Virus genome (UHGV): UHGV-0193858
Strand: one strand, 5' to 3'
DNA: 19,501 bases
Origin: a virus
Below, piece after piece: positions 970 to 18,336 of this stretch. The position numbers and the translations under genes were made by a program. Positions within the stretch are counted from its first letter, which is position 1. Each line of letters begins with the position of its first letter. The notes under the pieces were generated by a model. It did not search any database. It worked only from the letters and a program-made list of their open reading frames with translations, and was not told the origin of the DNA.

Positions 970-978
970 TTTTTATCC

Positions 979-3042
979 TCAGAAAACGTTAATACGAAAA
1001 GCGGGGAGCCAGTCGTAAAGAGTCACGGATGTGTCATACACCCATATGATTCCAGCGGAAGATCGAACACACCCTCTTGCACCAAGAGTCCGCCCGGAAG
1101 GTTTTACAGATGCGCCGCTCTGAAGTGGGTTTTCTGCTGTCGCATAGGAAACGCGCCCAAAACGTCCAGAGGGGGCGGTCGCCAGGTTAATCAGCACGCC
1201 CTTGCCGTCCGAGCTGATCGCGATGCTCGATATAGCAGGTGGAGCACCAGTCTCATCCGTGTAGCTAAAGCCGTAATTGGCCAGACCGGAGGTGTTGATC
1301 GTAGTCGTGTCCAGCACCAGGTTCGTATACGCTGGGACATTGATTTGTATCTGCGTGGGTGAGTTCCACACGAAACTGGTCGGAACCATCCCTGACCAGC
1401 CGCTCGTAAACCACTCCTGGAGAAGCGCTCTCGCCACAGCTGCTCCGCGCCGGTTCTGGCCCGCACACGTCAAGTGCAGACCGTCTGAAATAAAATCGTA
1501 CTGGTACAAACTATTGACCAGCCTGAATTGCTCTTTTCCGTGCAATCGCGTCGACGCCAGTCGCGCGTACTGGCCTGTAAATGCACCATGCCCGTCATTG
1601 ACATACCCCAGCTGGGTAATGGCGATAATCGGCGGTTCGTTTTGACCCGTTCTTGCGATGATGTCGCTGGTGATTTGTCTCTGGTACTGCCTCATCCGTG
1701 ATTCATACATTCCTTCTCGTAATCCTGACCAGTCCTCGTCGGACTCTCCCTGCATCCAGTCAACGCAGAGAACAATCGGCAGCCAGCCGCGTGCTTTACA
1801 GGCCGTTACGCAGTCTTCGATTGAATCGAGCAGATACTGATATACCTGGTTACCCCGTTTCTGGTACTCGTAAGCCTGACCAGACTGCGCACATACGATT
1901 GATAGCGTGCGCGGCATGATTCCGGTAGCTGCAGCCATATCGCGAATGAAGGTGTTCGCGAGGCCGCTTGCGGCCGTTTCTTTATCTGTCCCACTTACTG
2001 CCTCAACCAGTGGCACCAGAGTAGTGCTGCGTGTCCCTGTACGCCTAACCCCGCCGCTGAGCATGAAAGCGTTATCAGGATATATCGGCGTTGCTGCGAC
2101 AATGGTTTGATCGGCGTCAGGACAATATCCTCGAGCGTTGGATTGCCCAGCAGTCACAAAGATAAAACATACAGGCACTGTCTCTGAGTAGGGGTACACA
2201 GTAGACCCTGACAAATGAAGTCCATACTCAGGGAGCTGGTTGGCATCATCGTCGCCACCACCACCGCCATTTCCGTTATTAACAGCTACCAGGCCACCGT
2301 CTGAGTAAATCCAGTGCTTCCCACCAACCGTATAAGCTTCAACGATCTGGTTTGTGGTTGAATCAACCGTCATCCGCCACACTTTTTCACCGCCAATAAA
2401 CTGCGGTATAGAACCCTCCCGGCCCAGCGCATAGAGTTCGGATTCTTGTTGGGTTAAAAGTTCGTAATATTTTCCGTCAGGACCGATTTGAATTAATCTG
2501 CCGCTTGTATTTAAAAATGGAGCCACGCGGGAAGTCTCCGGATCATATGCTGCCAGGGTCACGCTGTCTGGCGATACCTGGTATGCGTAGTCGTCACGAA
2601 CCATCCGCCGTCCGGTTGGCTGCAGCGTTCCAGCGAGGTTGATATACTCATCGGCCAGAGAGCTTCCGTCCTGACTGCGGACATAGGTTGTTGAACCTGC
2701 CGGAATATTCGCAATATCCGCCTGCGCCGCCGCCAGCGTCATGTACTGCCGGCTGAGAGGGATCAGGTTTTGGCGGGCTTCATCAATAACAGCGTCGGTA
2801 GCAGCTGCCATTTTTTTAGTAGCCCCAATTATCGTATCCTGGGCGTTACCAAAACGATCTATAAAAGTATCGCTTTCGCTGTTCAGGAAATCATCGTACG
2901 CCAGGGCGTTATCATTCAGATCCTTCATGCTATTTGAAGGTCTTGGATTGCCGGTATTATATCTTTTGTCCATACCTGTTCCTGTCTTCATCTTTTCAAT
3001 GAAGCAATTAAGATTGACGCCCCGCCCCTTCAGGGCTAACAT
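979..3042 (-). CDS. Tailspike/tail-fibre protein with a central SGNH/SASA-type carbohydrate esterase domain; true start probably internal (ATG at 2973 or 2991)
   Basis: 687-aa ORF. The central segment VCFIFVTAGQSNARGY carries the GQSN(M)xG nucleophile motif of the SASA/DUF303 esterases, and DGLH near the end of the domain fits the Asp-x-x-His of the triad. A glycine run (NGNGGGGGDDD) precedes it. MDKRYNT at 2973 has an AGGAACAGGT Shine-Dalgarno upstream. Confidence 0.65.
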   Translation of the reverse strand: MLALKGRGVNLNCFIEKMKTGTGMDKRYNTGNPRPSNSMKDLNDNALAYDDFLNSESDTFIDRFGNAQDTIIGATKKMAAATDAVIDEARQNLIPLSRQYMTLAAAQADIANIPAGSTTYVRSQDGSSLADEYINLAGTLQPTGRRMVRDDYAYQVSPDSVTLAAYDPETSRVAPFLNTSGRLIQIGPDGKYYELLTQQESELYALGREGSIPQFIGGEKVWRMTVDSTTNQIVEAYTVGGKHWIYSDGGLVAVNNGNGGGGGDDDANQLPEYGLHLSGSTVYPYSETVPVCFIFVTAGQSNARGYCPDADQTIVAATPIYPDNAFMLSGGVRRTGTRSTTLVPLVEAVSGTDKETAASGLANTFIRDMAAATGIMPRTLSIVCAQSGQAYEYQKRGNQVYQYLLDSIEDCVTACKARGWLPIVLCVDWMQGESDEDWSGLREGMYESRMRQYQRQITSDIIARTGQNEPPIIAITQLGYVNDGHGAFTGQYARLASTRLHGKEQFRLVNSLYQYDFISDGLHLTCAGQNRRGAAVARALLQEWFTSGWSGMVPTSFVWNSPTQIQINVPAYTNLVLDTTTINTSGLANYGFSYTDETGAPPAISSIAISSDGKGVLINLATAPSGRFGRVSYATAENPLQSGASVKPSGRTLGARGCVRSSAGIIWVYDTSVTLYDWLPAFRINVF

Positions 3043-3050
3043 CGCCTTAC

Positions 3051-3338
3051 GTGTTTAAACGGTTAAATAAGAGAATGATTTTAATAAATAAATACACCCC
3101 TCCAACGCAGGAAGATTTAGCCAGACTGAAATCCGCACTAAATTACTCCGGAAACCAAATGGCAGGGCTCGCAGGTGTAGCCAGCGATAGCCAATGGCGG
3201 AAATACACTGGCGGAGAGAGCCCCAGGGTAATGTCAAGACACATACTGTTTTATATTGCAGCTCAGCTTGTTCTGTCTGATGAGCAACTTAACAATGTAA
3301 TAAATAAAATGCGCGATATTGGCGCGGAGATAAAATAA
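3051..3338 (+). CDS. Small XRE-like helix-turn-helix protein (putative regulator); start uncertain (GTG at 3051 or ATG at 3075)
   Basis: 95-aa ORF. The segment SGNQMAGLAGVASDSQWRKYTGGE resembles a Cro/CI-type HTH. Its stop overlaps the acyltransferase start (ATAATG), suggesting translational coupling. Confidence 0.4.
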   Translation: MFKRLNKRMILINKYTPPTQEDLARLKSALNYSGNQMAGLAGVASDSQWRKYTGGESPRVMSRHILFYIAAQLVLSDEQLNNVINKMRDIGAEIK

Positions 3339-4429
3339 TGCTTGGCCTAATAAGGTTTTTTTTGGCATCGTGCGTCATTGCTTTTCACTTAACGGCTCGC
3401 ATACCTGCACTTGGCAACTTTGCAGTGAATTGCTTCTATGTTATTAGTGGTTTTTTAATAACATACATTTTGCATGAAACATACAAGTTCAACTTCTCTA
3501 TGTTTTGGAAAAATAGAATACTGAGGTTATTCCCGGCATATATATTTTTTCTCGTCATGGGCTTTCTTATTATAAAATTAATTCCATCCGCAAAGGAATT
3601 CCACTCAAACTGGACAGGCAATTTCTTACCTGGAGATTTATTAGGAAACCTCTTAATCTTCCCCTGGGCTTTCCTTTCTGATAATGCTGTAGCAAATCCA
3701 TTCGGTGCCTTTTCATCCATTTATCACTTTGCTATTGATGGTAATAGATTCAGAATAGTCACATCATCATGGTCAGTGGGTGTTGAGATAACATGTTATT
3801 TTTTATTGTGGCTTTTCATAGCCCGAAATAAATTTACAGCCATTACGTCGATTCTGCTTTCACTGCTTTATCATGCTTACGTATATGTAGTACACCATTC
3901 TTTTGATATGGCGTATTTCCCATTCCTTGCTGCAACACTTCCTTTTAGCATGGGTTCTCTGGGTTATTTTGCCCATAGAAAGTTCAAAGCTATGTATCTT
4001 TCTCCACACAAAGCTTTTTTAATAACATTTATTTGCATCGGGATTTTTATTACCAATTGGCATTTATATACAATTAATCCATTAGGTCAGTACAACATAA
4101 TACTTTACTACACCAATAATGTAATAGCATTGTTTACAACCCTGGTATTATTAAAAATAAAGACAAACATACATCTTGAGAAAATACTCAAGTGGTTTGG
4201 TGACCTGGCCTATCCAATTTTTCTTTGTCAATATTTTGGTGGATTTCTAGCATGGCTTGCTATTGGTGGTGAAAATCGTGGCTTATCCATCTTTTTATTA
4301 GGCTACCCAATATCAATTGCACTTGGGATCGTTTGTGTAATATTAATAGACAAGCCACTAATTAAAATTAGAGCAAAAATAAGGGCGGACGCTCAAAGCA
4401 AAAATAATCAGGAAAACTCTTCAAGGTAA
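3338..4429 (+). CDS. Acyltransferase family 3 integral membrane protein (polysaccharide O-acetyltransferase-like, Oac/WecH type)
   Basis: 363-aa ORF, strongly hydrophobic throughout. The N-terminus has the family pattern: His in the first helix (CVIAFH) and FYVISGFLIT (FFxxSGFLIT motif). The region is visibly AT-rich compared with its neighbours and lies on the opposite strand to the phage structural genes. Confidence 0.75.
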   Translation: MLGLIRFFLASCVIAFHLTARIPALGNFAVNCFYVISGFLITYILHETYKFNFSMFWKNRILRLFPAYIFFLVMGFLIIKLIPSAKEFHSNWTGNFLPGDLLGNLLIFPWAFLSDNAVANPFGAFSSIYHFAIDGNRFRIVTSSWSVGVEITCYFLLWLFIARNKFTAITSILLSLLYHAYVYVVHHSFDMAYFPFLAATLPFSMGSLGYFAHRKFKAMYLSPHKAFLITFICIGIFITNWHLYTINPLGQYNIILYYTNNVIALFTTLVLLKIKTNIHLEKILKWFGDLAYPIFLCQYFGGFLAWLAIGGENRGLSIFLLGYPISIALGIVCVILIDKPLIKIRAKIRADAQSKNNQENSSR

Positions 4430-5192
4430 ACTAAACCATTCGCTCCTTTTCCTGATGAATAGTTACCATTCCCCCCGGCACCACCTGAGCCGGGGAAACC
4501 GCCATCATCGCCAGAACTACCGAAGTGGCCATTGCCACCCGTTGATGAAAATGCAGATCCTCCAGCCCCGCCAATAAAAGCATCAGAACCATAATACAGA
4601 CCACCTTGAGATATTCCGCCAGTAATATTTAAAATGTTCCCGCCACTTCCGATACCTCCAGCAGGAACTGTAGCCCCGCCACCACTCCCTCCAGTAGCTG
4701 AGATTAAACTCCCGAACCTTGTATCACCACCATTCCCGCCTTTAGACGAGACACCAGCAGCAACAGCACTGCCACCAGTACCTATCGTCACAGATATAGT
4801 TTCGTTATCAGAAATATTAAATAACCCTTCCGAAAATCCACCAGCACAACCTCCAGATGCGCCCACACTAACTGGAGCATTCTGGCCACCTCCCCCGCTC
4901 CCCAAACTTTCACCCGCACTCTTTTCGTCCCTTTAGTTGGAGTGTAAGTCCCTGACTTAGTAAAGGTGACAATATTAAGCAGGCGACCGCCACCAATCGC
5001 TTTAAGAACCTGTGAATCATCATCAGGATCAAGCTCAAGCCCCGCGCCCTCAACAACGTTTACCAGCTCACGCTGAAAGGTATTCATCATCTCAGCATTA
5101 ATTATTGTCGGTGAAATACCATTAGCGACATTACCATTAGTGTATTCACCATTAGCATCAGCGGTGTCAGTTGTACTGCCAACTTTTCTCAT
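4408..5192 (-). CDS. Tail fibre protein (conserved N-terminal domain plus glycine-rich C-terminal domain), split between two frames by a 1-nt frameshift in a G-run
   Basis: ORF 4788..5192 encodes an N-terminus typical of Mu/P2-type fibres (FQRELVNVVEGAGLELDPDDDSQVLKAI ... TFTKSGTYTPTKGTKRVRVKVWGAG). ORF 4408..4905 encodes the Gly-rich continuation in another frame and has a TTG start. Both frames are open across 4788..4932. Adding one G to the GGGGG run (plus-strand C5 at 4892..4896) gives a continuous 261-codon ORF reading ...VKVWGAGGGGGQNAPVSVG... Confidence 0.6.
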
Positions 5193-5218
5193 ATAAACCT
5201 TCTTTTTAAATGTCTGAA

Positions 5219-5893
5219 TTAAACGTAACCGGAAGCGATATCAAATATTTTGGCAAACTCAGGCGTGACTTCGTAAACCCCCTCATCGTTAAAACCGAAA
5301 TAGATATAGCCGAATTTGACCAGGGTGTATGAGGGGGCGAGGGCATTAATCCGGCATTCAAGCTGACGATTACCCCAGGAACGTAATGGATCGCCACAAT
5401 AACTCAGACCCGCACGGGCATAAGTTATCGTTGTGTCTTCCGCCTCTACCAGCCAGACAAATGGCCAGTCATCCCCATTTAGCCCGTCACCACATACCGA
5501 TAAGCCAGCACGCGCCTGCCGGTATTCCTTAATCGAAATCGTATAACCCATTGCTGCGGCAATACTGATGAAATAGCTCTTTGACTGCCCGCCGGTACTG
5601 ATGAGTTTCGATACAATGTCAGACTGACGCTTCGCAATCGTATCCACTTCGCCAATCGAGCAATCATCAGGTAAGCCGAGTGTTTTTTCCCACTCGGTGA
5701 GCATAATCGTCGCAGTTTTTGGAAAGGCACCGCGCAGCAATGCAAGTGCGTCGTTATCACTTCGCTGGAAACTGGCCGCAATGGCCCGCAGTACAGCGGC
5801 CTGAACAGCTTTTGGATCCCGTGTCCACGCTCGGCCGGTGGGGATAAGCGCCTGCAGTGCCTTCTGATAATCGTCTGTTGAGAAAAGGCTCAT
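5219..5893 (-). CDS. Phage tail protein, DUF2313 family (Mu gp48 / P2 gpI / e14 YmfQ-like)
   Basis: 224 aa, position directly after the J-like gene, and the N-terminal pattern LIPTGRAW ... LTEWEKTLGLP typical of this family. Its start overlaps the J-like stop. Confidence 0.7.
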   Translation of the reverse strand: MSLFSTDDYQKALQALIPTGRAWTRDPKAVQAAVLRAIAASFQRSDNDALALLRGAFPKTATIMLTEWEKTLGLPDDCSIGEVDTIAKRQSDIVSKLISTGGQSKSYFISIAAAMGYTISIKEYRQARAGLSVCGDGLNGDDWPFVWLVEAEDTTITYARAGLSYCGDPLRSWGNRQLECRINALAPSYTLVKFGYIYFGFNDEGVYEVTPEFAKIFDIASGYV

Positions 5894-7038
5894 GTGTAGT
5901 TCACCTCACCACGAACAGCCAGCTCCCCAACTCCCGGCTCAATATTCGCAGAAGGCGACACAAGGATATAACCTGAAGTACCGGCAACATCCCCTATCGC
6001 ACGGTTGAGATCTGAAAGGTAAATTTTCCCTGTGCCGAGCGGGTTAGCGGATTCAAACAATACCCCGTCAATCGCATCAGCAATGGCCGCAGTCGTTGCG
6101 CTGTCGGCATCAGATATCCCGCCTATTTCAAAATCGATAACGCGTTCGATGGGAGAGCAGACATAGTTAAGGGAAGTAACCGGCGCAAGCGGATACATAT
6201 AATCGGCAACTCTCCCCTGATCCCCGGTGGCTTTTACAGCCCCCCACTCTTCCAGTTGAGAGACACCGTCAGTTCCTACAGGGAATCCATGATTGGTTTT
6301 ATCATCGCCGTCGCACATGATGTAAATCACCACGGTACCCGGCCCCATCCCCCGGCGCCGTATCCATGCCCTGGTAATCCCCGACACGGATAAAGCCCAG
6401 CTTTTATAATCAGTGTCACTCCCGCCCTGCGGGGGATTCTGATACGCCAGCAGACCACGTAATCGGAAATCCTCTTCACTTTCAATGTTGGCGCCGCCGG
6501 TGGCGGGCTCAATCAGCGTAACCGAGCTGTCTATGCCGGGGGCATTAGCATCCAGTGTAAGAATGGTGCCAGCATCGGCATTTCCGGAAGCGCCTCCTCC
6601 TGTCACATCGTCTGTGATATCCGGCAAAACCGCTGTTACAGCAACCGACGCACTGCCAGCAGTGTTTATCGTTATGGCATCATCGGTTGTGTACTGGTAA
6701 CCATCATCACGGTTTAACACCGCCCCTTTTGACAGTGTTTTCCCCGGCGTTCCGGTAACGGTCGCCGCCGGAGAGCGTGCTGCCGTTGCGGCTTTTCGGT
6801 AAATCTGCTTTAGCGCCATCCATCCGGCAAGCCACTCATCGGTAGAGGTGAAAGGCGTGCTCTGACGGGCAATATAATCCAGGTAGGCGTAGTGCAGATG
6901 GGCCATGCCCGCATCCATATCAGCGAGCACCTTAAGGTTGCCAAACCGTAACAGCGCGCCAACACTTTCAAGCTCTGCCTGCATAAACTGGCGATTCTCC
7001 TGCCGGAGCTCGCTCAGTGTTTTCCGCTTAAATGGCAT
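5890..7038 (-). CDS. Baseplate J-like protein (Mu gp47-like)
   Basis: 382 aa, placed between the gp46-like and DUF2313 genes, with overlapping stop/start codons on both sides as in Mu-type baseplate operons. Confidence 0.75.
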   Translation of the reverse strand: MPFKRKTLSELRQENRQFMQAELESVGALLRFGNLKVLADMDAGMAHLHYAYLDYIARQSTPFTSTDEWLAGWMALKQIYRKAATAARSPAATVTGTPGKTLSKGAVLNRDDGYQYTTDDAITINTAGSASVAVTAVLPDITDDVTGGGASGNADAGTILTLDANAPGIDSSVTLIEPATGGANIESEEDFRLRGLLAYQNPPQGGSDTDYKSWALSVSGITRAWIRRRGMGPGTVVIYIMCDGDDKTNHGFPVGTDGVSQLEEWGAVKATGDQGRVADYMYPLAPVTSLNYVCSPIERVIDFEIGGISDADSATTAAIADAIDGVLFESANPLGTGKIYLSDLNRAIGDVAGTSGYILVSPSANIEPGVGELAVRGEVNYT

Positions 7039-7477
7039 TATTCAGTTGCTCCCATAGCCAGAAGAATTTGAACTCCTGCCAGTCCCCCGCCGGCGGCAAA
7101 TACCGGATGATGAGGTTCAGCCTATTCGGGAAAACAATCTCTGACTGAGCCTCTATCGCTGCTGCAATACCATCCGACTTCATCCAGGCCAGAGCCTCTT
7201 CGGCATAATCTTCAGCTCTCATCGCCACTTCGCGCGTCAGTTTTTCACGCCGCAGTAGCCACAGCCTTGAGCCAATATTCCGGTCGTTGTCCAGATCCCC
7301 CCACCAGCCGCGGCGGTCAGTTCCTTCATAATCATCATCAGCGCGCGCCAGTCCGTCAGTAAACAAACTGATAATTATGGCCGTGTGCATATCATTCTCA
7401 GATGTCAGTACGCCGTTACCGGTTTGCCAGTCAGCATGAATGGCATCCACATCCCAGAATGAGGAAATATCACTCAT
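7028..7477 (-). CDS. Baseplate protein, GP46 family (Mu gp46 / P2 gpW-like)
   Basis: 149 aa, with N-terminal W..DL....GDL and a TAIIISLFTD segment as I remember for GP46-family proteins. Position between the V-like and J-like genes. Confidence 0.65.
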   Translation of the reverse strand: MSDISSFWDVDAIHADWQTGNGVLTSENDMHTAIIISLFTDGLARADDDYEGTDRRGWWGDLDNDRNIGSRLWLLRREKLTREVAMRAEDYAEEALAWMKSDGIAAAIEAQSEIVFPNRLNLIIRYLPPAGDWQEFKFFWLWEQLNNAI

Positions 7478-8055
7478 ACCTGACTCTCTGTTTTTTCGCT
7501 TATGATCGTGCTATCGCCGGACTGAACTTTTTTAACGTCATGGTCATGATCGTTGTGAGCATCCCGCAGCGCTTTGAGCGTTGAATTGTTCGTCTCGCAG
7601 TTATCGATGATGTCACCCGTCACCAGGAGTTTGGGGGTAACCAGCTTTACCTGTTCCGTTGCCGTCGCGGTGATGTTTCTGGCATTATTGATCTCTACAT
7701 CTTTGCCTTTCGCATCAATGAAAATTCCCTCCTCGGTCAGATGAATATTCATCCCCTGCTGGTTATAGACCACGGTTTCGCCTGGCTTAAGCCCGGTATA
7801 CCGGAAGCTTTGATGGTTAGAGGCAATGACGACAGGACTGGAGCGGTCCCCGCCGAGAAAGGCAATAAGCACATCCGATCCCGCCGGTAACCCCGATGAA
7901 AAACCAAAATCAGAGAGCCGTGGGGCGCTGGCCACTTCCAGCGGAGTCTGGTACTGGATTTCCTGCACAACCCCGCTATCTTTCTGCGTGGTAATACGGC
8001 CAATGCCCAGCATGCCGGCGATGCGCGTGGCCGATTTCTTTAAATTTTGATTCAT
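7474..8055 (-). CDS. Baseplate assembly protein V / central spike (Mu gp45-like)
   Basis: 193 aa, size and position after the hub gene, and a C-terminal histidine cluster (HNDHDHD) reminiscent of metal-binding spike tips. Confidence 0.65.
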   Translation of the reverse strand: MNQNLKKSATRIAGMLGIGRITTQKDSGVVQEIQYQTPLEVASAPRLSDFGFSSGLPAGSDVLIAFLGGDRSSPVVIASNHQSFRYTGLKPGETVVYNQQGMNIHLTEEGIFIDAKGKDVEINNARNITATATEQVKLVTPKLLVTGDIIDNCETNNSTLKALRDAHNDHDHDVKKVQSGDSTIISEKTESQV

Positions 8056-9137
8056 TGGTTTAGTCCGGGTATTTGCTGGTAGAAAGCATAAGGCTGGACA
8101 GCGAAAGCCTCCGGGGGCATCAGATAAAGGCGCGCATGGGTGCCGTCACTGTCTCTGATATAAGTCACCTCTGCGATAAGCAATTCGGTGTCAGGCAGCT
8201 GCAGACTCGGGATGTTGACCGGGATAAGCGTATTCGGCTCCCATAATTTCCCGGATTTATCGCGCCAGGAATCAATCGTCACCGTTAACTGACGGGAACG
8301 GCCGTATCGGCGGTTCATCTCCCAGTCAATCGCTCGCTGAGCCTGTTGTGAAGCCATCAGTGTACTTTCAACAATAATGATCCGTTTTCGGTAACGCATA
8401 CTGGCCGCCTCAGGATCGCGGGCCGTCGCCAGCGTCACCGAATCATAAGCCGTATCTGGCGAGAATCCTGCAATCGGCGAAATGCTCATCGATACGCCGA
8501 CGTAATCAGAAAAGCGGTCAGCCATCGAACGGCGGTAATAAGCCTGTTCGATATTTACCCCTTCTGCGATACCGCTGGCCGCGCGCTTTGTCCCCACCCG
8601 GGTCAGAAATAAGTTACCGTCAGGCTGATCGTAATAAAGCAATGCCGACCAGCGGGAGACACGATCAAGTATTTCCTGTGGCGATTCCCCCCAGTTCAGG
8701 GAAAATTGCGGAACTTTCACCAGATCATCAACGTCTGTACTTACGCCAATGTTGTAATGGGATGCGAGGCGGGAGGCTATATCAAGCGCATTACTGTTAT
8801 TGATGACGTTATTTGGCCATTCAGCAGAGCAATCAACGAGATCTGCGCACTTACTGCGGCCTGAGGCTCTGACTTCATGGCGCGAACGGGAAATAGCAGG
8901 CGACCAGTCATCAACATACCCCGTCACTACCAGGTCGTTACCAAGCTTTACCTGACAAGGCATCCCTTCCTTTACCAGCTGCTTCTGGTCACTTCCCGGA
9001 AAATAATCCATCAGTCCCAGGTCAAAATCGGAGGGAAAACGCTCAATGCCACGGGTCACCCGCACAGAGTCCCATCCTTCAATGATTTTTCCGCCCACTG
9101 TCAGGGAGACAATATCCTGATCATTATCCGTACTCAT
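8052..9137 (-). CDS. Baseplate hub / tail protein (Mu gp44, P2 gpD-like)
   Basis: 361 aa, lying immediately upstream of the V-like, gp46-like and J-like genes in Mu order. Called from position and size; I do not recall a diagnostic motif. Confidence 0.6.
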   Translation of the reverse strand: MSTDNDQDIVSLTVGGKIIEGWDSVRVTRGIERFPSDFDLGLMDYFPGSDQKQLVKEGMPCQVKLGNDLVVTGYVDDWSPAISRSRHEVRASGRSKCADLVDCSAEWPNNVINNSNALDIASRLASHYNIGVSTDVDDLVKVPQFSLNWGESPQEILDRVSRWSALLYYDQPDGNLFLTRVGTKRAASGIAEGVNIEQAYYRRSMADRFSDYVGVSMSISPIAGFSPDTAYDSVTLATARDPEAASMRYRKRIIIVESTLMASQQAQRAIDWEMNRRYGRSRQLTVTIDSWRDKSGKLWEPNTLIPVNIPSLQLPDTELLIAEVTYIRDSDGTHARLYLMPPEAFAVQPYAFYQQIPGLNQ

Positions 9138-9520
9138 TGTCTCAACACCTTCATCGTCGTCGGCATAAATGCCGGATGCGGTACGCTGGCCTCCTGTATC
9201 AGTTCATTTGCCCGCGAGGCATCCTGATACAGGCGGTTGGCCAGTACCAGGGCAGGAACCGGCACCGCAGTATTGATTTGCATCAACTCACTCAGTCCGG
9301 ATGAAGTCTGAGCCATGGTATTCAGAAAAGCGGTTCTCACGTCCATCAATGCCGTATAAAGATCATCATCGCCACGGTCGCCCGCCAGTAGTAACGCGGT
9401 ATCCAGTTGCCCGGCCACGCGTTGAGTGATTTCTTCGGCCTCATTACGACTGGTTGGGTTGTAATCTGCAGCAGCATCCGTCATGGCTCCGGTACATAGC
9501 ACTACGATCAGCGTGTTCAT
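9134..9520 (-). CDS. Probable C-terminal remnant of the tail gene upstream of the hub (Mu gp43-like?), truncated by a deletion
   Basis: 128-aa ORF translationally coupled to the hub gene (ATGA overlap). Its frame is closed by a stop about 20 codons upstream of the first ATG. Its 5' end overlaps the 3' end of the decoration-protein ORF by 77 nt. Confidence 0.35.
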   Translation of the reverse strand: MNTLIVVLCTGAMTDAAADYNPTSRNEAEEITQRVAGQLDTALLLAGDRGDDDLYTALMDVRTAFLNTMAQTSSGLSELMQINTAVPVPALVLANRLYQDASRANELIQEASVPHPAFMPTTMKVLRQ

Positions 9521-9953
9521 GGTGCCAGCCAGTTGCTGGCTGCTTTCGGAACGCTGGTAAAGGTGCCTGGGCGCTGTCTTTCAGGAAGATGGCCAGCGGA
9601 CGTAGTGCTGTTTTCAGTTCCGGCGCAGTCCAGGAATCGTCAAAAATAATATGATTCTGGTTGAACTCGCCCATCAGGTACAGGCCGCCGGACTGATCGC
9701 CATGGGTGGAAGCGTCAACATCATCAACCAGAATGGCCGCTGGCGTCTCGCTACCATCCGTTGCGGTTTTCACACTGGCTGTATATTTGCCACTGGCGGT
9801 GATCATGCCAAGCACAGTGCCACGCTTATACACACCGCCGGTGATCGTGCCGGTGTCAGTGACCAGTTGCAGCGTACCGGCAATTAACTGATCCGGCACA
9901 AACACTGAACTCTTCATGCCAGGTGCAAAGGCATTCTGACCAAATTGATCCAT
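9444..9953 (-). CDS. Head decoration protein (lambda gpD-like) with an aberrant C-terminal extension
   Basis: The first ~125 aa resemble lambda gpD in length and pattern (TDG ... GILV ... GGLY ... W, ending ...LAIFLKDS). The last ~40 aa (AQAPLPAFRKQ...CCCRLQPNQS) have no counterpart and overlap the next ORF. Confidence 0.55.
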   Translation of the reverse strand: MDQFGQNAFAPGMKSSVFVPDQLIAGTLQLVTDTGTITGGVYKRGTVLGMITASGKYTASVKTATDGSETPAAILVDDVDASTHGDQSGGLYLMGEFNQNHIIFDDSWTAPELKTALRPLAIFLKDSAQAPLPAFRKQPATGWHHEHADRSAMYRSHDGCCCRLQPNQS

Positions 9954-10543
9954 TATTTCTCTCCTTTAATGGAGTTGTAGAGGCCGGTCATCTGGTTTAC
10001 CAGTGCCGATTTACCGTTCTCTTTCTTGCCGCCATCCGGATTCAGACGGACATCATGGCTTTCCTGCATGCGCTGATCGAGAGAGCGCCCGCGCGTTGCC
10101 TTTGGTTGCAAGGCTGGCGCCGTGGATGCCAGAACATCGATAGCGGCGGTAGAGCTCATCCCGGTATTGAATGCGAGTGAAGCGGCCAGTGACGGATTCG
10201 CCGCAGCGTGCTTACTGCCGAAGATACGGGCGCAACGTTTACGCTCGGCGGCGCGGGCATTTTTCACCGCTTTGCTTTCTTTGCGGTCATCGTCGCCGTC
10301 ATCTTCGGAATCGTCATCGTCTTCAGCCGCATCCAGGTCGTCACCGTCATCTTCAGCGTCATCATCACGATCGTCGTTTTCCGCGTCATCTTCGCGTTCA
10401 TCGTCCCCGGCATCATCTTCGCGCTCATCCTCTTCCGCGCGACGGCCTTTCGCTTTTTTGGCCTTTTTGTCCTCTTCCTCTTCGGAAGCAGTCGCGCCAC
10501 GGCCAATAAGATGAGCAAAACTAAAAGTCTTTTTCTTCGCCAT
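9953..10543 (-). CDS. Head scaffolding protein (lambda Nu3-like C-terminus) with a ~70-residue acidic Asp/Glu-rich insert; start taken at MAKKK
   Basis: The C-terminal segment AAERKRCARIFGSKHAAANPSLAASLAFNTGMSSTAAIDVLASTAP aligns with the lambda C/Nu3 C-terminus as I recall it. The ATG at 10543 lies 2 nt after the protease stop. The ORF track extends the start to 10627, overlapping the protease. Confidence 0.55.
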   Translation of the reverse strand: MAKKKTFSFAHLIGRGATASEEEEDKKAKKAKGRRAEEDEREDDAGDDEREDDAENDDRDDDAEDDGDDLDAAEDDDDSEDDGDDDRKESKAVKNARAAERKRCARIFGSKHAAANPSLAASLAFNTGMSSTAAIDVLASTAPALQPKATRGRSLDQRMQESHDVRLNPDGGKKENGKSALVNQMTGLYNSIKGEK

Positions 10544-10544
10544 T

Positions 10545-11411
10545 TCAGGCTCCTGTTTTTTCAAGTAAGTTTCTGAACGCAGCATCAGGAGGACACACCT
10601 CATCAGCCAGTCCAAGTTCCACACCATCAGCAGCCATAAAACAGGCAGCCTGAGTACTTTTGATAACCTTTGCGCTAATCCCCCGATTTCTGGCGACGGT
10701 ATTCACAAACAATTCGCCCATGGTGTTGATGTCCTGCTGAATAGCCGCCAGCGCTTCATCTGACAGCTCTCTCAGCGGTGCCCCCTCAGCCTTACGGGAA
10801 CCGTAGGTGATGATGGTGACTTTGAGGCCGTCATCTTTTATCCGCTGGGTCCAGTCAAGGTGCATAGTGATCACACCAACTGAACCCACACCACCGGTTC
10901 GGGGAACAGAAATCCGGTCCGCCGCACTGGCAATCGCATAGGCGGCGGAATAGGCGCTTTCCGTCAGAATGGCATGGATGGGCTTTTTCCCGCGGGCGCC
11001 ATAAATGACATCGACCAGATCGAAACATCCGGCGACCTCGCCTCCTGGCGAATCAATATCCAGGCAGATCCCTGTAATATCGGGGTCTTCCATCGCAGTC
11101 AGGAAGGCCTGACGAATGCCGTCATAGCCTGTCATGCCACTGTATGGGCGCAGGCTACCCAGCTTCTGCACCAGGGTCCCACATATCGGGATGACAGCGA
11201 CGCCCAACACATTGTCATAACCCGGGTCGCTACGGGATTCCCGCCCCCTGTTATCGTCGTATCCATACCAGTCATCATCCATGGCAAGAGAGGATTCGAT
11301 TTTACTGATGCCAAACCGGTCCATAACGGATGCCATGATGACTTCAGCTTTACTTGGGTGCAGCGCCAGCGGTGTATTAAAAAGGCGCTGGGCCAGATGA
11401 GGTAGATTCAC
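10545..11411 (-). CDS. Prohead protease, S49 (ClpP/SppA-like) family, lambda gpC N-terminal domain-like
   Basis: 288 aa. LRPYSGMTGYDGIRQAF ... ICLDIDSPGGEVAGCFDLVDVI closely matches the lambda gpC protease domain (LQPYSGMTGYNGI ... LLDMDTPGGMVAGAFD). Confidence 0.85.
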   Translation of the reverse strand: MNLPHLAQRLFNTPLALHPSKAEVIMASVMDRFGISKIESSLAMDDDWYGYDDNRGRESRSDPGYDNVLGVAVIPICGTLVQKLGSLRPYSGMTGYDGIRQAFLTAMEDPDITGICLDIDSPGGEVAGCFDLVDVIYGARGKKPIHAILTESAYSAAYAIASAADRISVPRTGGVGSVGVITMHLDWTQRIKDDGLKVTIITYGSRKAEGAPLRELSDEALAAIQQDINTMGELFVNTVARNRGISAKVIKSTQAACFMAADGVELGLADEVCPPDAAFRNLLEKTGA

Positions 11412-13042
11412 TTTTCCTCCGGATCGGTAATTGTCTGGCTGGCGAACTGGTCCGCCTGCGCCCAGCTAGGTAATGGAAGTCCGCGCTTCAGGCAGGACTC
11501 AATTTCCCGCTGGCGCTGATCAAGTATCTCTTCCCAGTCCTCACCCACGTTTTCACCCACTTCAATTTCGAGAGTGGAAAGGCCGGCATCGAGGCCGAGA
11601 ATGGCGCCTTTTTTCTCTGCCACCGGATCAACCCATCCTCGCCCCGGCCCCATCCAGCGCGCACGGGAATACGCTGCCCGGGCATCAACAAAATCAGGGG
11701 CATCATTAGGTAGAGGTAAATCCTCGTTATCGTGAACTTCCTCCACAAAGGCCGTCAGAAGCGGCTGAGCGGTACCCATGGAGAAATCATCACGTCGGCG
11801 GGTGAGCGTTTTCCATGCCTCCAGCAAGGAAGATCGCGCAGAGCTGTAATTCACATCAGACCAGTCCTGTGTAACCTGCTGAGGAGATAACCCCGTACCG
11901 GATGAGAAATTACGCAATACTGCAGACTCGAAAACCTCAAAGTTGCTGTAAGGGCGGGCAGCGTTGACCGTTGTTATTCTCTCCCCTGGATAAAGGATCG
12001 GCATACGGGCGCCATTCTGCAGCGTCAAACGGCGATCATTATGAAACTCTGCACGACCATCCTGGTATGCTCCCAATCCCTCTTCGAAGTTTTCCCCCAG
12101 CGCGGACTGGATCATTTCGGGATCGTATGGAGACTCAATATACGCGGCGAAGATAGCATTCAGAATTGCTGCTTCCAGCTCGCTCTGGTCGTACTTCACC
12201 AGCATCTTCAGACGTTGCACTACTGGAGTCAGAATGCCATTCCCCCGATGCTGAGCTCCACGCTCATGGTCAAAGTCGTGCACAACGTGCGGGCGCCCCC
12301 ATGCGGTTTCGCGCGGGATTCGTCGCCATGTCATTGTTTTGGCGCCACTCCACCAGTCACCGATATGTGCTTCACGTATGTGATAAGCCACAGGTGCGCC
12401 GTCAGCATCAATTTCAACGCCGCCGCGGATATTCGGCATATCAAAATTCTGCTGCGGGTTACTGAGTCTGTCGGGATCAACAACCTGCACCGTCGTGGCA
12501 TAACGCCCCTTACCTGGTCCAAGGCGATCGGTGCGATACTGAAGCACCATCAGGGCATCGCCATCAATCAGCTTGTGGCGAAAGGCCAGACGCAACATTT
12601 GTGGAACGGTTAGCTTGCGCTCAACGTCACAATAACGGCCTGTGTCGTATGCCCAGGTTCTCCAGTGGGAAGCGAGTGCTTTTCCGTACTCTTCCGCCCA
12701 TACTGCGTCAAAACTTTTATTACCTGTCATCATCCGTAATACACGATAGTCAGGCTTCATGATCGGACGGAAATTGGCGCCGACCGCATTATCAAGCAGG
12801 CGAGTTATGGCACCATTGGCCCATCCATCATTTCGGACCAGATCCCGCGCACGGGAAACTATACGGTCACGGTAGATATTAATTTCGTTATCCGGTGACC
12901 ATAGTGCGGGCTGCCAGTTCGCCAGTTGATCGCTGAAGGAATCCCCGGCGTCATATGGCACCCGGCTACCGCCCGTCAACATGCTGGGTTTTGGTGCCTG
13001 ATAAGGTCTCCCGTCAGGACCAAGGATTTGCACTTTATTCAT
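11408..13042 (-). CDS. Portal protein, lambda gpB-like
   Basis: 544 aa. ARDLVRNDGWANGAI matches lambda gpB ADDLVRNNGYAANAI. Size and position between the gpW-like and protease genes. Confidence 0.85.
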   Translation of the reverse strand: MNKVQILGPDGRPYQAPKPSMLTGGSRVPYDAGDSFSDQLANWQPALWSPDNEINIYRDRIVSRARDLVRNDGWANGAITRLLDNAVGANFRPIMKPDYRVLRMMTGNKSFDAVWAEEYGKALASHWRTWAYDTGRYCDVERKLTVPQMLRLAFRHKLIDGDALMVLQYRTDRLGPGKGRYATTVQVVDPDRLSNPQQNFDMPNIRGGVEIDADGAPVAYHIREAHIGDWWSGAKTMTWRRIPRETAWGRPHVVHDFDHERGAQHRGNGILTPVVQRLKMLVKYDQSELEAAILNAIFAAYIESPYDPEMIQSALGENFEEGLGAYQDGRAEFHNDRRLTLQNGARMPILYPGERITTVNAARPYSNFEVFESAVLRNFSSGTGLSPQQVTQDWSDVNYSSARSSLLEAWKTLTRRRDDFSMGTAQPLLTAFVEEVHDNEDLPLPNDAPDFVDARAAYSRARWMGPGRGWVDPVAEKKGAILGLDAGLSTLEIEVGENVGEDWEEILDQRQREIESCLKRGLPLPSWAQADQFASQTITDPEEK

Positions 13043-13305
13043 CAGAATCTGAACCTCACTGGCTTCCGTGGCCGGGCGACAATTCCCAGTTGCGCCTGCA
13101 GCAACTGAATCAGCGCCAGCAGGTCGGCGAGAGAGCTTTGCTGATAGGAGACAGAGCGCGTCCCATCACCCTGCGTATAGGAGAATGAGACGCCACGGCT
13201 GCCGGTAGTCAGGTCGATATAAGCCTGCTGCGCTTTCTGCAGAGCGTCTCTGAGCTGCTCATCAGTCATCCCACCAGCAAGTAAGCTCGTGTTTCGGTTA
13301 AACAT
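13042..13305 (-). CDS. Head-tail joining protein, lambda gpW-like
   Basis: 87 aa, between terminase and portal. Pattern similarity to lambda gpW (DLTTGSRGVSF ... SLADLLALIQLLQAQLG versus DLMTGKRVATV ... SVSDLKKYIAELEVQTG). Confidence 0.6.
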   Translation of the reverse strand: MFNRNTSLLAGGMTDEQLRDALQKAQQAYIDLTTGSRGVSFSYTQGDGTRSVSYQQSSLADLLALIQLLQAQLGIVARPRKPVRFRF

Positions 13306-13313
13306 GGTTTTCC

Positions 13314-15446
13314 TTATTGCGGCAGGAGTTTAGAAATGTTCTTACGCTTAACAGGAGCCATAGCCTCATCCACGATGGCACCCGGTAATTCGTAATTGAT
13401 TTTTTCTTCTGGCTCGGCTGGCGCCGGCAGGAACTTATCGGGATCGGCCTGAAGGTTAGCGGCCCGAACATTGAGTTTTAATCCCATATGTTTCAGCCCA
13501 CACAACGCGGCATAGCTGTAAACGAGGCAGTCGAGTGCTTCGTTCGCCCGTCCGGGGATAGGCTCCCAGACACTGAATCGCTGACCGGCCACCACTTTAT
13601 AAACCAGTCGCTCGGCCAGCAGCTGGTTGAAATAGCCGAGGTCACGATCATCCGGGAAGTGCATATAGCCCGCACCGGCAGTACCTAAAGCTGGCGGTTC
13701 AAGATGCAGACGACCACGGACAACATCTTTCGCAGAGTTCACGCCAAGTATAATTGGCCTGAAGCTGGCTTTACTTTTCGATGTCGGTCGCTTGGTTGGC
13801 CAGACGGGGTTGCGTTTCCCACCCTGCGCAGATTCGCCCTTGATAGCCCAGACGCGGCGCCCAAGGCGATCTTTGCAGAACTCATAAACCTTTTGCGTGT
13901 GGTGACCGCCGGAGTCCATACATGCAGCCAGAATATTCAGCCCTCGCCCGTCGCCGCGTCGCCATATCTGTTTCAGGTACGCATCGAGGCGCTTCCAGGG
14001 TTCCTCAGTCTCCAGATCGCCATAAATGACGTCATGCGCAACTGACCACGATTCCTCGTCCCGCCCCCAGCCAGTGATCGTGATTTCGAATCGGTCATCC
14101 TGAGTATCGACGCCCGCAGTTAACAATGCCACGCCATCAGGAACGACGGCCGGGAAGACTTCACGGCGCGCCAGCAGGACATCAACCGGGAGCTGTTTCC
14201 CGTGGTTAGGCCGGTGCGGCAACCCCATCTGGGTGTTCCACCAGGCCTGTTCCTTATCCGGATCCCCTTTCGCATCGAGGTATTTCTTTGCAATGTCCGA
14301 TGGCTTGTCTTTTTGCCAGGGACTGAAGAGTTTTGACGCCTGGTACCCGGCGTGGTGATTATCCAGCGCCTCGGCCCCGCAGTCCGGGCAAATCGCCCGG
14401 TATACGGCATGCCGTTCCGACTCTGACCAGCGCCAGACGGCATCAACACTGCCCTCGTCTCCTTCATGCCATTTCTGGTCGTATTCCATTAATGGTGAAT
14501 GGCGGGAACCACAACATTCAAACGGTTTGGTCTGATGCCAGCGGATTGTCTGTAATGCCCGCAGACGCTCACCCTCTGACCAGCCAGCACCACAACATTC
14601 ACAATGGATCATGGCCGCTTTGGTCAGGTGCTTATCACCTTCTTTTGGCCATTGAACATGTTTGAAGAAATCAAGGAACTGTCGGTGCCCGCAATGGGGG
14701 CAAACTACAGAGGCCCGCCGCTGATCTGAATCTTCGTAACTGTCAGCAATCCGGCTTTCATCTTCGATCGTCGGCGAACAAGCCCGCACGGACAGCCAGT
14801 TAAGGCCAAATGTGGCGGTTCGCTCTTCCGCCAGAGCGATGGGATCGCCCTCACGGGTAATCGGATATTTATCCACCTCATCTGCCAGCAGAACACGGAT
14901 CGGACGGCGCGCAAGGTTATCTGGACTACCGGCGCCGGCCAGCGCCAGAAATCCGCCGGTGAAAGCTTTATACAGAATGGTTTCTTTTGAACTCTTCTGC
15001 TTTGAGTCACCTATGATGTTACGCAGAACTGGCGTTACCCTAACCAGCGGGCTGATGCGTTCTTTGGAAAACTGCTCAGCGGCCTCTTCCTTCGGCTGCA
15101 GGAGCAAAATCGGACATGGGTCGAGGTGCGCAAAATAACCAAACAGGTTTTCCAGCAGCGCGGTTTTCATTAACTGGGTACAGCACATCACGGTGATAAT
15201 GTGGACGCCCGATTCCGTCGCGGCCAGCATAGGACCGCGGGCAATTTCAACCGTTGATGTTTCCCAGTTCCCGGAGGTACTGCCAGCTTCTTTCGCCAGC
15301 TTCCGGTAGTCATCGGCCCATTGCGGGACGCTGATCCGCGGCGGCGGTGTCCACCCTTTCCGGACACTCAGTTGAAGACGCTCAATCTTCCGCTGGGTTA
15401 AACTCTGGTTCTCCGAGGACTGAGATATGTTTGTGGACATGTTCAA
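13314..15446 (-). CDS. Terminase large subunit, lambda gpA-like
   Basis: 710 aa. Contains the VVCPHCG zinc-finger-like motif (lambda VACPHCG), TAGVDTQDDRFEITITGWGRDEESW (lambda TAGIDSQLDRYEMRVWGWGPGEESW) and C-terminal RANEALDCLVYSYAAL (lambda RNEALDCFVYALAAL). Confidence 0.9.
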   Translation of the reverse strand: MNMSTNISQSSENQSLTQRKIERLQLSVRKGWTPPPRISVPQWADDYRKLAKEAGSTSGNWETSTVEIARGPMLAATESGVHIITVMCCTQLMKTALLENLFGYFAHLDPCPILLLQPKEEAAEQFSKERISPLVRVTPVLRNIIGDSKQKSSKETILYKAFTGGFLALAGAGSPDNLARRPIRVLLADEVDKYPITREGDPIALAEERTATFGLNWLSVRACSPTIEDESRIADSYEDSDQRRASVVCPHCGHRQFLDFFKHVQWPKEGDKHLTKAAMIHCECCGAGWSEGERLRALQTIRWHQTKPFECCGSRHSPLMEYDQKWHEGDEGSVDAVWRWSESERHAVYRAICPDCGAEALDNHHAGYQASKLFSPWQKDKPSDIAKKYLDAKGDPDKEQAWWNTQMGLPHRPNHGKQLPVDVLLARREVFPAVVPDGVALLTAGVDTQDDRFEITITGWGRDEESWSVAHDVIYGDLETEEPWKRLDAYLKQIWRRGDGRGLNILAACMDSGGHHTQKVYEFCKDRLGRRVWAIKGESAQGGKRNPVWPTKRPTSKSKASFRPIILGVNSAKDVVRGRLHLEPPALGTAGAGYMHFPDDRDLGYFNQLLAERLVYKVVAGQRFSVWEPIPGRANEALDCLVYSYAALCGLKHMGLKLNVRAANLQADPDKFLPAPAEPEEKINYELPGAIVDEAMAPVKRKNISKLLPQ

Positions 15447-15945
15447 TCAGCACCTCTGTCATCCTGTCCGCCGGCACATTCAGATCGGCGGCTATCAGCG
15501 GTGCCACGCGTGAAGGCCAGTTCAGCCAGGCATCACGCTGCTGGCGAAAGGCGTTAAACAGAACCTCCTCGGCGATGGCCAATTCAATTGTCTGGCCGCT
15601 GTCTTTTTCATACTGGAGCTTTGCCTGCAGGGCCATGTAATTTTCACGGATCCGCGCGGCCTCTTCCCTGGAAAGGACTGCACCTTCTGTAAGCATTATC
15701 TGGCGAACGGTTTCATCAATTTCATCGTCGCCATCATTCCGGGGTGCTGGGGCTTTTTTCTTCTTCGCGTTTGATGCCCGCGGATCTTTTCCATCACGGT
15801 TTTTCTTCAGCGCGGCATCGCTCGCCTCAACATCAATCAGGTCGCCATCCATGACGATAAACCGACCAGCCTTGATCCATCGGCCAATAGTCTTGCGATC
15901 GACGCCTGAATGTTGCGCGTACTGACTCTGGTTCATCGTGGTCAT
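15382..15945 (-). CDS. Terminase small subunit, lambda Nu1-like (winged-HTH N-terminus)
   Basis: N-terminal MNQSQYAQHSGVDRKTIGRWIKAG parallels lambda Nu1 VNKKQLADIFGASIRTIQNWQEQG. Lies immediately upstream of the large subunit, overlapping it by 65 nt. Confidence 0.75.
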   Translation of the reverse strand: MTTMNQSQYAQHSGVDRKTIGRWIKAGRFIVMDGDLIDVEASDAALKKNRDGKDPRASNAKKKKAPAPRNDGDDEIDETVRQIMLTEGAVLSREEAARIRENYMALQAKLQYEKDSGQTIELAIAEEVLFNAFRQQRDAWLNWPSRVAPLIAADLNVPADRMTEVLIEHVHKHISVLGEPEFNPAED

Positions 15946-16092
15946 GGGACATCACCTGGGACATTTTTGGGGTGGGACATTTACCTGGGACATTTTTTCA
16001 ATGTCCCACACGAATGTCCCACTGGAATAAATGGAATAATCCGTGCTGGCTCTGGCGTGGCTGGCGATCCCTTGGGGTGGGACATGGGACAC
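15946..16092. repeat. Array of about eight GGGACAY heptamers in both orientations directly upstream of the small terminase gene; candidate cosB-like terminase-binding sites
   Basis: GGGACAT at 15946, 15958, 15974 and 15987; inverted ATGTCCC at 16001 and 16014; GGGACAT at 16079 and GGGACAC at 16086. The placement mirrors lambda cosB (R sites between cosN and Nu1). Confidence 0.5.
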
Positions 16093-16192
16093 AAAATAAA
16101 AGTTTGTAGCTAGGAAAACACTGCGGCGCGCAATGCCCGTGCCTTACAAAAGTCTCAGGAAGGACCCAAACCCTATGGGGTAGGTATTCAGG

Positions 16193-16717
16193 TCATTTTG
16201 CCGTTCGAATCGCTTCCTCAATCGCCCTACTCAGCGCGCCGGGCATTAAGCCGGCTGCCATTGACCGTGAGCGGTTCATGTAGTCAAGCGTAGGCGTAAC
16301 AGGTAGAGCATCACCAAACCTCACCAGCAGCTTAGGAGCACGCTGTTTCCGCTTTGGTCTGCGCGTACCATTCGCTGAGCGCCGGGCTCGTTTCTTTTTC
16401 GCCTTCTTCGGTTTACGCCTCTGCCAGACAGCATCAACACCATTGACCTCACCTACGAACACATTCGGCTTCGCTTTCAACTGCGACAGCTTATTTCGCG
16501 GCATGTTGCCGTATTTGTTCAGTTTGATGTTCTTTGGATTGAGCAGCGCCTGGCTGTTCAGTTTATGTTCACCACCAAATTCAAAGGGTTCGAGATATTC
16601 AGCGGCGACATCGCGCACAAAGACTTTTGCGCGGAGGTTGTTCTTTCTGGCGCCAGCAGAGCCCACTGAGTTGACGGTGAACGGCGTCGGCGATTCCAGT
16701 TTTCGCCCCAGTGCCAC
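16193..16717 (-). CDS. Hypothetical basic protein (174 aa) with a Lys/Arg-rich tract, lying between the integrase remnant and the cos/terminase region
   Basis: Long open frame on the minus strand with no comparable plus-strand ORF. Contains RRKPKKAKKKRARRSANGTRRPKRKQRAPK. No family recognised. Confidence 0.4.
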   Translation of the reverse strand: MALGRKLESPTPFTVNSVGSAGARKNNLRAKVFVRDVAAEYLEPFEFGGEHKLNSQALLNPKNIKLNKYGNMPRNKLSQLKAKPNVFVGEVNGVDAVWQRRKPKKAKKKRARRSANGTRRPKRKQRAPKLLVRFGDALPVTPTLDYMNRSRSMAAGLMPGALSRAIEEAIRTAK

Positions 16718-17313
16718 CTTTTGCGCTGCGGCGATATCAGCGTGGTTATGTACCAGGTAATCCGTGTGTTGGTGTCGATAAGTTTCCTAAACCCCAGCGC
16801 GACCGCTACATAACTGATGAAGAGTACATAGCTATCTTCACTCATGCGACACCTGCAGTTAAAGCCGCGATGGAAATTGCGTATCTTTGCGCTGCAAGGG
16901 TATCTGATGTTCTTAAAATGAACTGGAATCAGATTCTTGATAAAGGAATTTTCATACAGCAAGGTAAAACTGGTATTAAACAGATCAAAGCCTGGACTGA
17001 GCGTCTTAGTGCGGCTGTGGATATTTGCAGGGAATGGGGACAGGATGGCCCTGTTATCAGGACAATGTATGGTGAGCGTTATTCATACAAGGGATTTAAT
17101 GAAGCATGGAGAAAAGCGAGAAACGCGGCTTCTGAAGAACTTGGTAGGCCACTTGATTGCACCTTCCATGATCTAAAGGCTAAAGGGATCTCAGACTATG
17201 AAGGATCTGGCAGGGATAAGCAAAAATTCAGTGGTCATAAGACAGAATCACAGGTACTTGTTTACGACAGGAAAGTTAAAATCAGCCCAACGTTGAACAA
17301 GAAAATGAGATGA
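16711..17313 (+). pseudogene. Tyrosine integrase, C-terminal catalytic domain only (about 170 N-terminal residues missing); convergent with the tRNA
   Basis: The 200-aa ORF aligns with the lambda Int catalytic half: RDRYITDEEYIAIF versus RSRLTADEYLKIY, FIQQGKTGIKQIKA versus YVEQSKTGVKIAIP, and TFHDLKAKG ... SGHKTESQVLVYDR versus TFHELRSLS ... LGHKSDTMASQYRD. No arm-binding or core-binding N-terminal domain is encoded upstream in any frame. Confidence 0.65.
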
Positions 17314-17320
17314 TTCTTTG

Positions 17321-17355
17321 GCGTCGGAGCATGCTTCGGCGCTAGAATTTTTCTC
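17321..17355 (+). terminator. Candidate intrinsic terminator after the integrase remnant
   Basis: Inverted repeat GCGTCGGAGC / GCTTCGGCGC at 17321..17342 (9-10 bp stem with two G-U pairs) followed by AATTTTTCTC. Confidence 0.45.
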
Positions 17356-17425
17356 AGTGGATTTTCTCAATTTTTCTCATCGGGATGCAGGTCACTGAAA
17401 GGGAATGCTGTAAGTGTTTGAATAG

Positions 17426-17515
17426 TGGCGGAGAGAGGGGGATTTGAACCCCCGGTAGAGTTGCCCCTACTCCGGTTTTCGAGACCGGTCCGTTCAGCCG
17501 CTCCGGCATCTCTCC
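17426..17515 (-). tRNA. serU: tRNA-Ser (anticodon CGA), class II with long variable arm
   Basis: Minus-strand sequence GGAGAGATGCCGGAGCGGCTGAACGGACCGGTCTCGAAAACCGGAGTAGGGGCAACTCTACCGGGGGTTCAAATCCCCCTCTCTCCGCCA. It has a 7-bp acceptor stem (GGAGAGA/TCTCTCC), anticodon stem CCGGT/ACCGG with loop CTCGAAA, T-arm GGGGG-TTCAAAT-CCCCC and a 3' CCA. The serU symbol is from memory of the enterobacterial tRNA-Ser(CGA). Confidence 0.9.
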
Positions 17516-17757
17516 GTTCAGATGGTTGCCATGATGCCAGGAAATTTACACACAACCTTTTCAATAAGTTAGCCATCTTCAAAACTTCATTTTCTCATGA
17601 AATTTTGACATTAGCCCTTAATGATTGGCTGGGAATGCTTTCGCCTCTGAAAGGAGTTGCGAGTGCCTTTCCAGTATCGAATGGCGCTACTTTACCAGCA
17701 TGTTTTTATAGGCTCTTCATCCAGGGGTAAGGATGAAATTTAGGTGCGCACCACTTT

Positions 17758-18150: not shown

Positions 18151-18159
18151 CCCGGAATG

Positions 18160-18318: not shown

Positions 18319-18336
18319 AACTTCACCTCCCGAAAA

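Follow-up and report, generated by a model that had tools for sequence, protein, structure and literature searches.

Why does a lambda-like head module run directly into a Mu-like baseplate module, with no gene for a major capsid, sheath, tube or tape-measure protein between them? The question arises near the middle of a stretch of 19,501 nucleotides (hereafter the window), in which the first-pass annotation had flagged positions 9440-9600 as a deletion junction that fused two unlike modules, had placed the break near 9570-9590, and had judged the element probably unable to form virions.

Origin of the window and layout of its genes

A megablast search against complete E. coli genomes identified the window, at 100% identity, as a prophage remnant at serU, a tRNA-Ser gene, in E. 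coli HS (NC_009800.1). The HS chromosome shows the duplicated core of an element that integrated at a tRNA attachment site: a second copy of the 62-nt 3' part of tRNA-Ser lies 19,502 bp from the first, and an integrase gene fragment adjoins the tRNA. The window is almost certainly a defective (cryptic) prophage of the tRNA-Ser (serU)-mtfA locus of E. coli HS, and no paper describing this HS element was found in the literature.

The window is not collinear with the HS chromosome. Positions 1-17547 correspond to 2064644-2082191 of NC_009800.1 and positions 17548-19501 to 2062690-2064643, the chromosomal segment immediately to the left of window position 1; the record is a circular permutation of the 19,502-bp stretch 2062690-2082191, and the length of this circle in HS equals the spacing of the two copies of the 62-nt att core. 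The join at 17547/17548 is not a canonical attP: the full tRNA-Ser is still there, with 30 nt of flanking host DNA, and the first 60 nt at the left end of the element are missing. Searches for it in 5,426 complete E. coli genomes and in collections of viral, metagenome and species-representative genomes gave no match. Its likeliest cause, though unproven, is that an extracted prophage region was circularised or rotated by computation. A run of C at 4892-4896 is five long in the window and six long in HS and in 26 other near-identical complete genomes. This shortening by one nucleotide, which is either a homopolymer sequencing error or a private frameshift, splits a 261-aa glycine-rich tail-fibre gene into ORFs 4408-4905 and 4788-5192. 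Neither the permuted join nor the short C-run affects the deletion described below.

Genes were called from Pfam and PHROGs profile scans. From the small terminase to gp48 the calls below draw on the two collections together, and the head, packaging and baseplate genes all lie on the minus strand.

17426-17515, minus strand: tRNA-Ser(cga), the attachment site, whose 3' 62 nt are repeated at the element's other end in the HS chromosome
16735-17313, plus strand: integrase gene fragment, 5'-truncated
16193-16738, minus strand: late-region gene, 5'-truncated (PHROG 1924)
15382-15945, minus strand: small terminase
13314-15446, minus strand: gpA-type large terminase
13042-13305, minus strand: gpW
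11408-13042, minus strand: lambda-family portal
10545-11411, minus strand: S49 protease
9953-10543, minus strand: acidic scaffold-like protein
9444-9953, minus strand: gpD-like head-decoration ORF, 169 aa
9134-9559, minus strand: 3' fragment of a DNA-circularisation (Mu gp43-like) tail/baseplate gene
9134-9520, minus strand: 128-aa ORF within that fragment, without a Pfam match and matching PHROG 184 in its C-terminal part only
8052-9137, minus strand: Mu gp44-like hub
7474-8055, minus strand: gp45
7028-7477, minus strand: gp46
5890-7038, minus strand: J/gp47
5219-5893, minus strand: gp48/DUF2313
4408-5192, minus strand: glycine-rich tail fibre gene, split by the C-run in the window only
3338-4429, plus strand: acyltransferase
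3051-3338: small ORF upstream of the acyltransferase
979-3042: SASA-esterase (sialate-O-acetylesterase-like) tail-spike-like protein

The profile scans give the order that had been read from the letters alone: terminase, gpW, portal, protease, scaffold, decoration, a short ORF and then the baseplate genes. The head and packaging genes from the scaffold-like protein to the small terminase (9953-15945, minus strand) are all full length when compared with those of an intact prophage in strain W21, and the baseplate and fibre genes that are kept (4408-9137, minus strand) comprise the gp44-like hub, gp45, gp46, J/gp47, gp48 and the glycine-rich fibre.

The deletion junction at 9558/9559

Prophages at yecE/yecD in W21 (NZ_CP163122.1) and DY612 (NZ_CP047469.1) share the kept late module with the window at 99% DNA identity and have undeleted breakpoints, but they differ from it in their integrase and attachment site, their lambda-like early region, their distal tail fibre or spike, and the lack of any deletion. 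By blastn, window positions 2702-9559 align to 5334-12192 of the W21 locus (L001; about 6.9 kb) and positions 9555-15574 to 20001-26021 of the same locus (about 6.0 kb), both at 99.0% identity. The two flanks therefore form one contiguous module from which 7,814 bp are missing in the window; measured against DY612, where the gene order and the breakpoint sequences are the same as in W21, the absent segment is 7,815 bp. In a base-by-base comparison with W21 the left flank extends as far as base 9559 and the right flank can be followed without a gap from base 9558; the sequence across this junction is TTCGGAACGCTGGTAAAGGTGCCTGGGCGC. The deletion suspected in the first-pass annotation is thus borne out by the W21 alignment, at a position 12-30 nt from the one proposed, yet inside the flagged interval.

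The W21 prophage contains exactly the contiguous block that the window lacks. After its decoration gene (135 aa) come, in this order, the major capsid (349 aa, Phage_cap_E), a protein of 125 aa, a head-tail protein of the Phage_attach family, a neck protein of 181 aa, DUF2635, the sheath (Phage_sheath_1), the tube (Tail_tube), a TAC_7 chaperone (Phage_TAC_7), a tape-measure-like protein of 617 aa and a DNA-circularisation protein of 466 aa whose N-terminal part is a DNA_circ_N domain; the hub gene stands behind all of these. The nine W21 proteins that are fully deleted, among them the capsid, sheath, tube, tape-measure and neck proteins, have no match in any of the six frames of the window (tblastn; best E > 0.1), which agrees with the earlier failure to recognise a major capsid, sheath, tube or tape-measure ORF. 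Nor did I find an intact relative in which gpD directly precedes the 128-aa gene.

Both genes at the junction are broken. By tblastn, residues 1-132 of the 135 in W21 gpD lie at window 9953-9558 with 100% identity (E = 2e-87), and residues 326-466 of the 466 in the W21 circularisation protein lie at 9559-9137, again with 100% identity (E = 6e-90). With protein matches of this strength, and with about 99% DNA identity in both flanks, chance does not account for the arrangement. The two reading frames are offset at the junction, and the gpD-like ORF therefore reads 37 nonsense codons: codons 1-132 are native (132/132 identical to W21 gpD), codons 133-169 (9557-9447) run through the circularisation gene out of frame, and the stop is at 9444. 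The ORF matches the HDPD domain (PF02924) with E = 1.9e-22 over profile positions 9-112 of 116, and its homology to gpD ends at residue 121 (Pfam), 131 (PHROG) or 132 (W21 and Citrobacter phage phiNP proteins), the last three native residues having been replaced by 37 unrelated ones without a counterpart. The unmatched tail, which had been put at about 40 aa, is thus 37 aa long, and the 77-nt overlap that had been reported with the next ORF (9444-9520) is real. Judged from its sequence, the 169-aa ORF would be a member of the lambda gpD family by descent, and its function is doubtful.

On the other side of the junction, the remaining part of the circularisation gene is 141/141 identical to W21 over its residues. 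The 128-aa ORF runs from the internal Met339 (ATG at 9520) to the native stop, and the frame is closed just upstream of this ATG, as had been noticed before, by a stop at 9581-9583, 20 codons away. It matches PHROG 184 only at profile positions 282-407 of 411, and it lacks the DNA_circ_N domain (PF07157), which occupies residues 24-117 of the full-length W21 protein and is deleted here. The ORF reads as a gene fragment with a fortuitous internal ATG, not as a functional member of the Mu gp43-like family. Two entries of the HS annotation, WP_000371938.1 ("head decoration protein", 169 aa) and its neighbour WP_000128594.1 ("hypothetical protein"), are deletion-scar products, not genuine genes, and the HS prophage region should be scored as defective.

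The junction is common to six records that are uninterrupted over window positions 8000-11500 and 99.9-100% identical across them: four HS assemblies (the 2007 reference and three later ones) and two O9:H10 pig isolates from Quebec, which carry it at the same locus as HS, with an identical junction in strain Res13. It also occurs in an IMG/VR provirus record. The next matches listed (91-99.7% identity) cover only 9555-11500, and each has a second matching place elsewhere; this pattern is the signature of an indel at about 9555. The 7.8-kb loss is an ordinary internal deletion that has been inherited vertically since, an instance of ordinary prophage decay, and its scar matters little beyond annotation.

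As to how the deletion arose, intact relatives have a TA dinucleotide at both breakpoints, a 2-bp exact microhomology that lies within an imperfect extended match (CTGGTA / GTGGTTA). So short an exact match constrains the mechanism only weakly. Homologous recombination between repeats was considered and rejected, because only the TA is exactly shared, together with the imperfect TGGT(T)A.

The history that best accounts for the present arrangement, and very probably the true one, begins with a temperate, lambdoid-regulated myovirus of the type of phages phiNP and BZS1 (see below). Phages of this group have one late operon, in which the genes of a lambda-type head (terminase A, W, portal B, protease C, scaffold, D and E) precede those of a contractile tail and baseplate of Mu type. 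One illegitimate deletion of about 7.8 kb, associated with microhomology and probably due to replication slippage or another RecA-independent end-joining at short homology, then took away the end of the decoration gene (its last three codons), the DNA-circularisation gene as far as codon 325, and all that lay between: the major capsid, three head-tail connector/neck genes, DUF2635, the sheath, the tube, the tail chaperone and the tape measure. The out-of-frame join gave the decoration ORF its nonsense tail and left the distal gene as a C-terminal fragment, and a second deletion took the lysis, antitermination, replication and immunity genes along with the 5' part of the integrase.

A second deletion and the decay of the element at serU

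The junction of this second deletion lies at 16735-16738, with a TATC microhomology, and fuses the truncated PHROG 1924 gene head-to-head with the truncated integrase gene. The latter keeps residues 133-324 of 324, of which 192/192 are identical to the intact integrase of a serU remnant in strain 13P484A (NZ_CP019280.1), and lacks the N-terminal 132 aa. In W21 and DY612 the position of the second junction is occupied by lysis, Q, nin, replication and immunity genes, all of which are absent from the HS element; the repressor is likewise gone. Having lost its early and lysis genes and the 5' part of its integrase here, and its capsid and tail genes at the first junction, the remnant would have no working integrase of its own for excision and no means of replicating, of building capsids or tails, or of lysing the cell. 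The second deletion thereby strengthens the earlier suspicion that the element probably cannot form virions.

The remnant in 13P484A has the same attachment site as the HS element, the same integrase, and a left end that is identical up to window position 5062, inside the fibre gene. Unlike the HS element, it has kept its early genes and an intact integrase and has lost the whole late module from the fibre gene on. After the point that corresponds to 5062, this remnant (L006 6910-20790) continues into early genes for a methylase, YmfL, a RacR-like repressor and ParB, and it carries an ISKpn26 insertion. The different deletion pattern of 13P484A shows that one ancestral serU element decayed independently in separate E. 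coli lineages, and the pair HS and 13P484A is a clean example of such decay, with microhomology-associated deletions that differ from lineage to lineage.

Integrases of the 13P484A type are shared at 98.9% identity or more by at least 14 complete genomes. In one relative, SCU-308 (NZ_CP053281.1; L010 1183-41206), the same tRNA-Ser site is occupied by a prophage of about 40 kb that looks intact and has related left-end genes and an integrase that is 98.9-99.4% identical in DNA to the window's fragment. Its late module is of the HK97-type siphovirus kind, unrelated to that of the window, and an Acb2/Tad1-domain gene is present. This shows that whole late operons are exchanged as modules within this integrase group. 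No undeleted orthologue of the HS element was found at serU, where the integrase-sharing strains hold either the other remnant (13P484A) or an unrelated late module (SCU-308), and the ancestral state is therefore reconstructed from the shared mosaic module. The late module is a mosaic block that occurs with different integrases, the intact 99% copies at yecE/yecD being accompanied by another one.

Might the genes that remain be more than leftovers? A remnant kept by selection for a host function would be a domesticated module and not just a decaying one, and several parts could be proposed for such a role, expressed in HS and its relatives: the terminase-portal set (which incoming phages like phiNP might, for instance, exploit or be hindered by), the baseplate-fibre-acetylesterase set, or the gpD fusion. 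In keeping with this, the late ORFs that remain are all full length in the HS reference, and the left-end acyltransferase and sialate-O-acetylesterase-like tail spike persist in both independently decayed remnants. I nevertheless regard domestication as very unlikely, for the selection, the relatives and the gene content all speak against it. HS and the pig isolates differ at only about seven nucleotides over the element (an estimate from the bit-score difference), and five of these are amino-acid replacements (hub R202H, protease P274S, portal L522F, acyltransferase G311S and G145S in a hypothetical protein). Such a proportion is what neutral change would give and carries no sign of purifying selection, with numbers too small for a firm statement. 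Strains of the 13P484A type, moreover, have lost the whole late module. Finally, a baseplate that lacks tube and sheath is not known to form any particle, and neither is a portal that lacks a capsid. The element has neither the sheath and tube that a tailocin would need beside its baseplate, nor the capsid that a gene transfer agent would need beside its portal and terminase.

If any part has been domesticated, it is more plausibly the left-end acyltransferase and acetylesterase than the terminase-portal set, the baseplate-fibre set or the gpD fusion. In 13P484A these left-end genes, with the small ORF between them, lie at L006 9964-13414. They may have been retained because a surface-modification function is under selection, or simply because they lie near the left end. 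For the late genes, full length after about seven substitutions between lineages is compatible with recent decay and may also leave room for some selection; most simply, the terminase, portal and baseplate genes look intact in that they have not yet accumulated disabling mutations.

The cryptic prophages of E. coli K-12 (e14, Rac, Qin, DLP12, CP4-57 and others) are chromosomally fixed and vertically inherited, and have lost essential morphogenesis, lysis or integration genes by deletions. The HS element resembles them in these respects, and differs from them in its parental phage type and in that it is not known to benefit its host. PMC3105296 describes cryptic prophages as defective phage remnants.

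Native architecture of the late operon

A megablast search of the phage collection returned nothing, and two phages were recovered in distant mode only: Citrobacter phage phiNP (OR565852.1) and Serratia phage vB_SspM_BZS1 (MT843275.1). Their late genes follow the order of the window, with terS, terL, W, portal, S49 protease, scaffold and decoration on the head side, and a Mu-type circularisation protein, hub, gp45, gp46, gp47, gp48 and fibres on the tail side. In DNA the window is 74% identical to phiNP over the head genes and 67% identical to BZS1 over the baseplate genes. Unlike the window, phiNP has capsid, connectors, sheath, tube, chaperone, tape measure and a full circularisation gene between D and the hub, has lysis and early genes, and forms plaques. 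The proteins of the two broken genes tell the same story: phiNP gpD is 135 aa long and aligns to the window over residues 1-132 (72% identical), and of the 467-aa phiNP circularisation protein only residues 327-467 find a partner in the window's fragment (66% identical).

phiNP is a temperate myovirus of C. rodentium whose tail is contractile in electron micrographs; it forms plaques on E. coli K-12 and integrates at ssrA (PMC6456863), not at a tRNA-Ser gene as the HS element does. The pairing of a lambda-type head with a Mu-type contractile tail in one late operon is native to the phiNP-type group, because this viable phage has the same gene order, at 66-74% identity. The combination should not be read as evidence of fusion. 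The first-pass annotation was right that a deletion junction lies between the lambda-like head and the Mu-like baseplate; it does not join two phages.

It is extremely unlikely that the window is a chimera of two co-resident prophages, one a siphovirus that gave the lambda-like head and the other a myovirus that gave the Mu-like baseplate. The idea draws on the names of the Pfam families, which honour different phages on the two sides (lambda gpA/W/B/C/D; Mu gp44-48), and on the mobility of the late module, which is met with different integrases. Yet W21, DY612 and at least a dozen other genomes contain one contiguous late operon that both flanks match at about 99% identity. The flanks are also syntenic with phiNP and BZS1, and a simple internal deletion explains everything.

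An assembly artefact, in which the strain has the 7.8-kb segment and the assembly collapsed or skipped it, has next to no credibility: the source record is admittedly not error-free, since its shorter C-run and permuted layout are absent from every complete genome, but the junction is identical in the HS reference of 2007, the three later HS assemblies and the two independent pig isolates, which rules out misassembly, and the breakpoints share 2 bp and no collapsible repeat. Scarcely better can be said of the reverse polarity, with the short arrangement ancestral and the capsid-to-tape-measure block gained by the relatives, which has the formal symmetry of any indel in its favour and nothing else; against it, both junction genes are truncated relative to full-length homologues in several prophages and a viable phage (gpD without its last three residues and with an out-of-frame tail, the circularisation gene without 325 N-terminal codons including DNA_circ_N), and a tailed phage that lacked the genes for capsid, sheath and tube would not be viable.

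The late module that underwent this internal deletion shows one further difference from W21. Window positions 15575-16097, which take in the 5' portion of the small-terminase gene along with sequence farther upstream, have no alignment to W21, while the flanks are 99% identical, and DY612 matches positions 15500-16738 at 97%. The segment looks like a local mosaic replacement within the late module.
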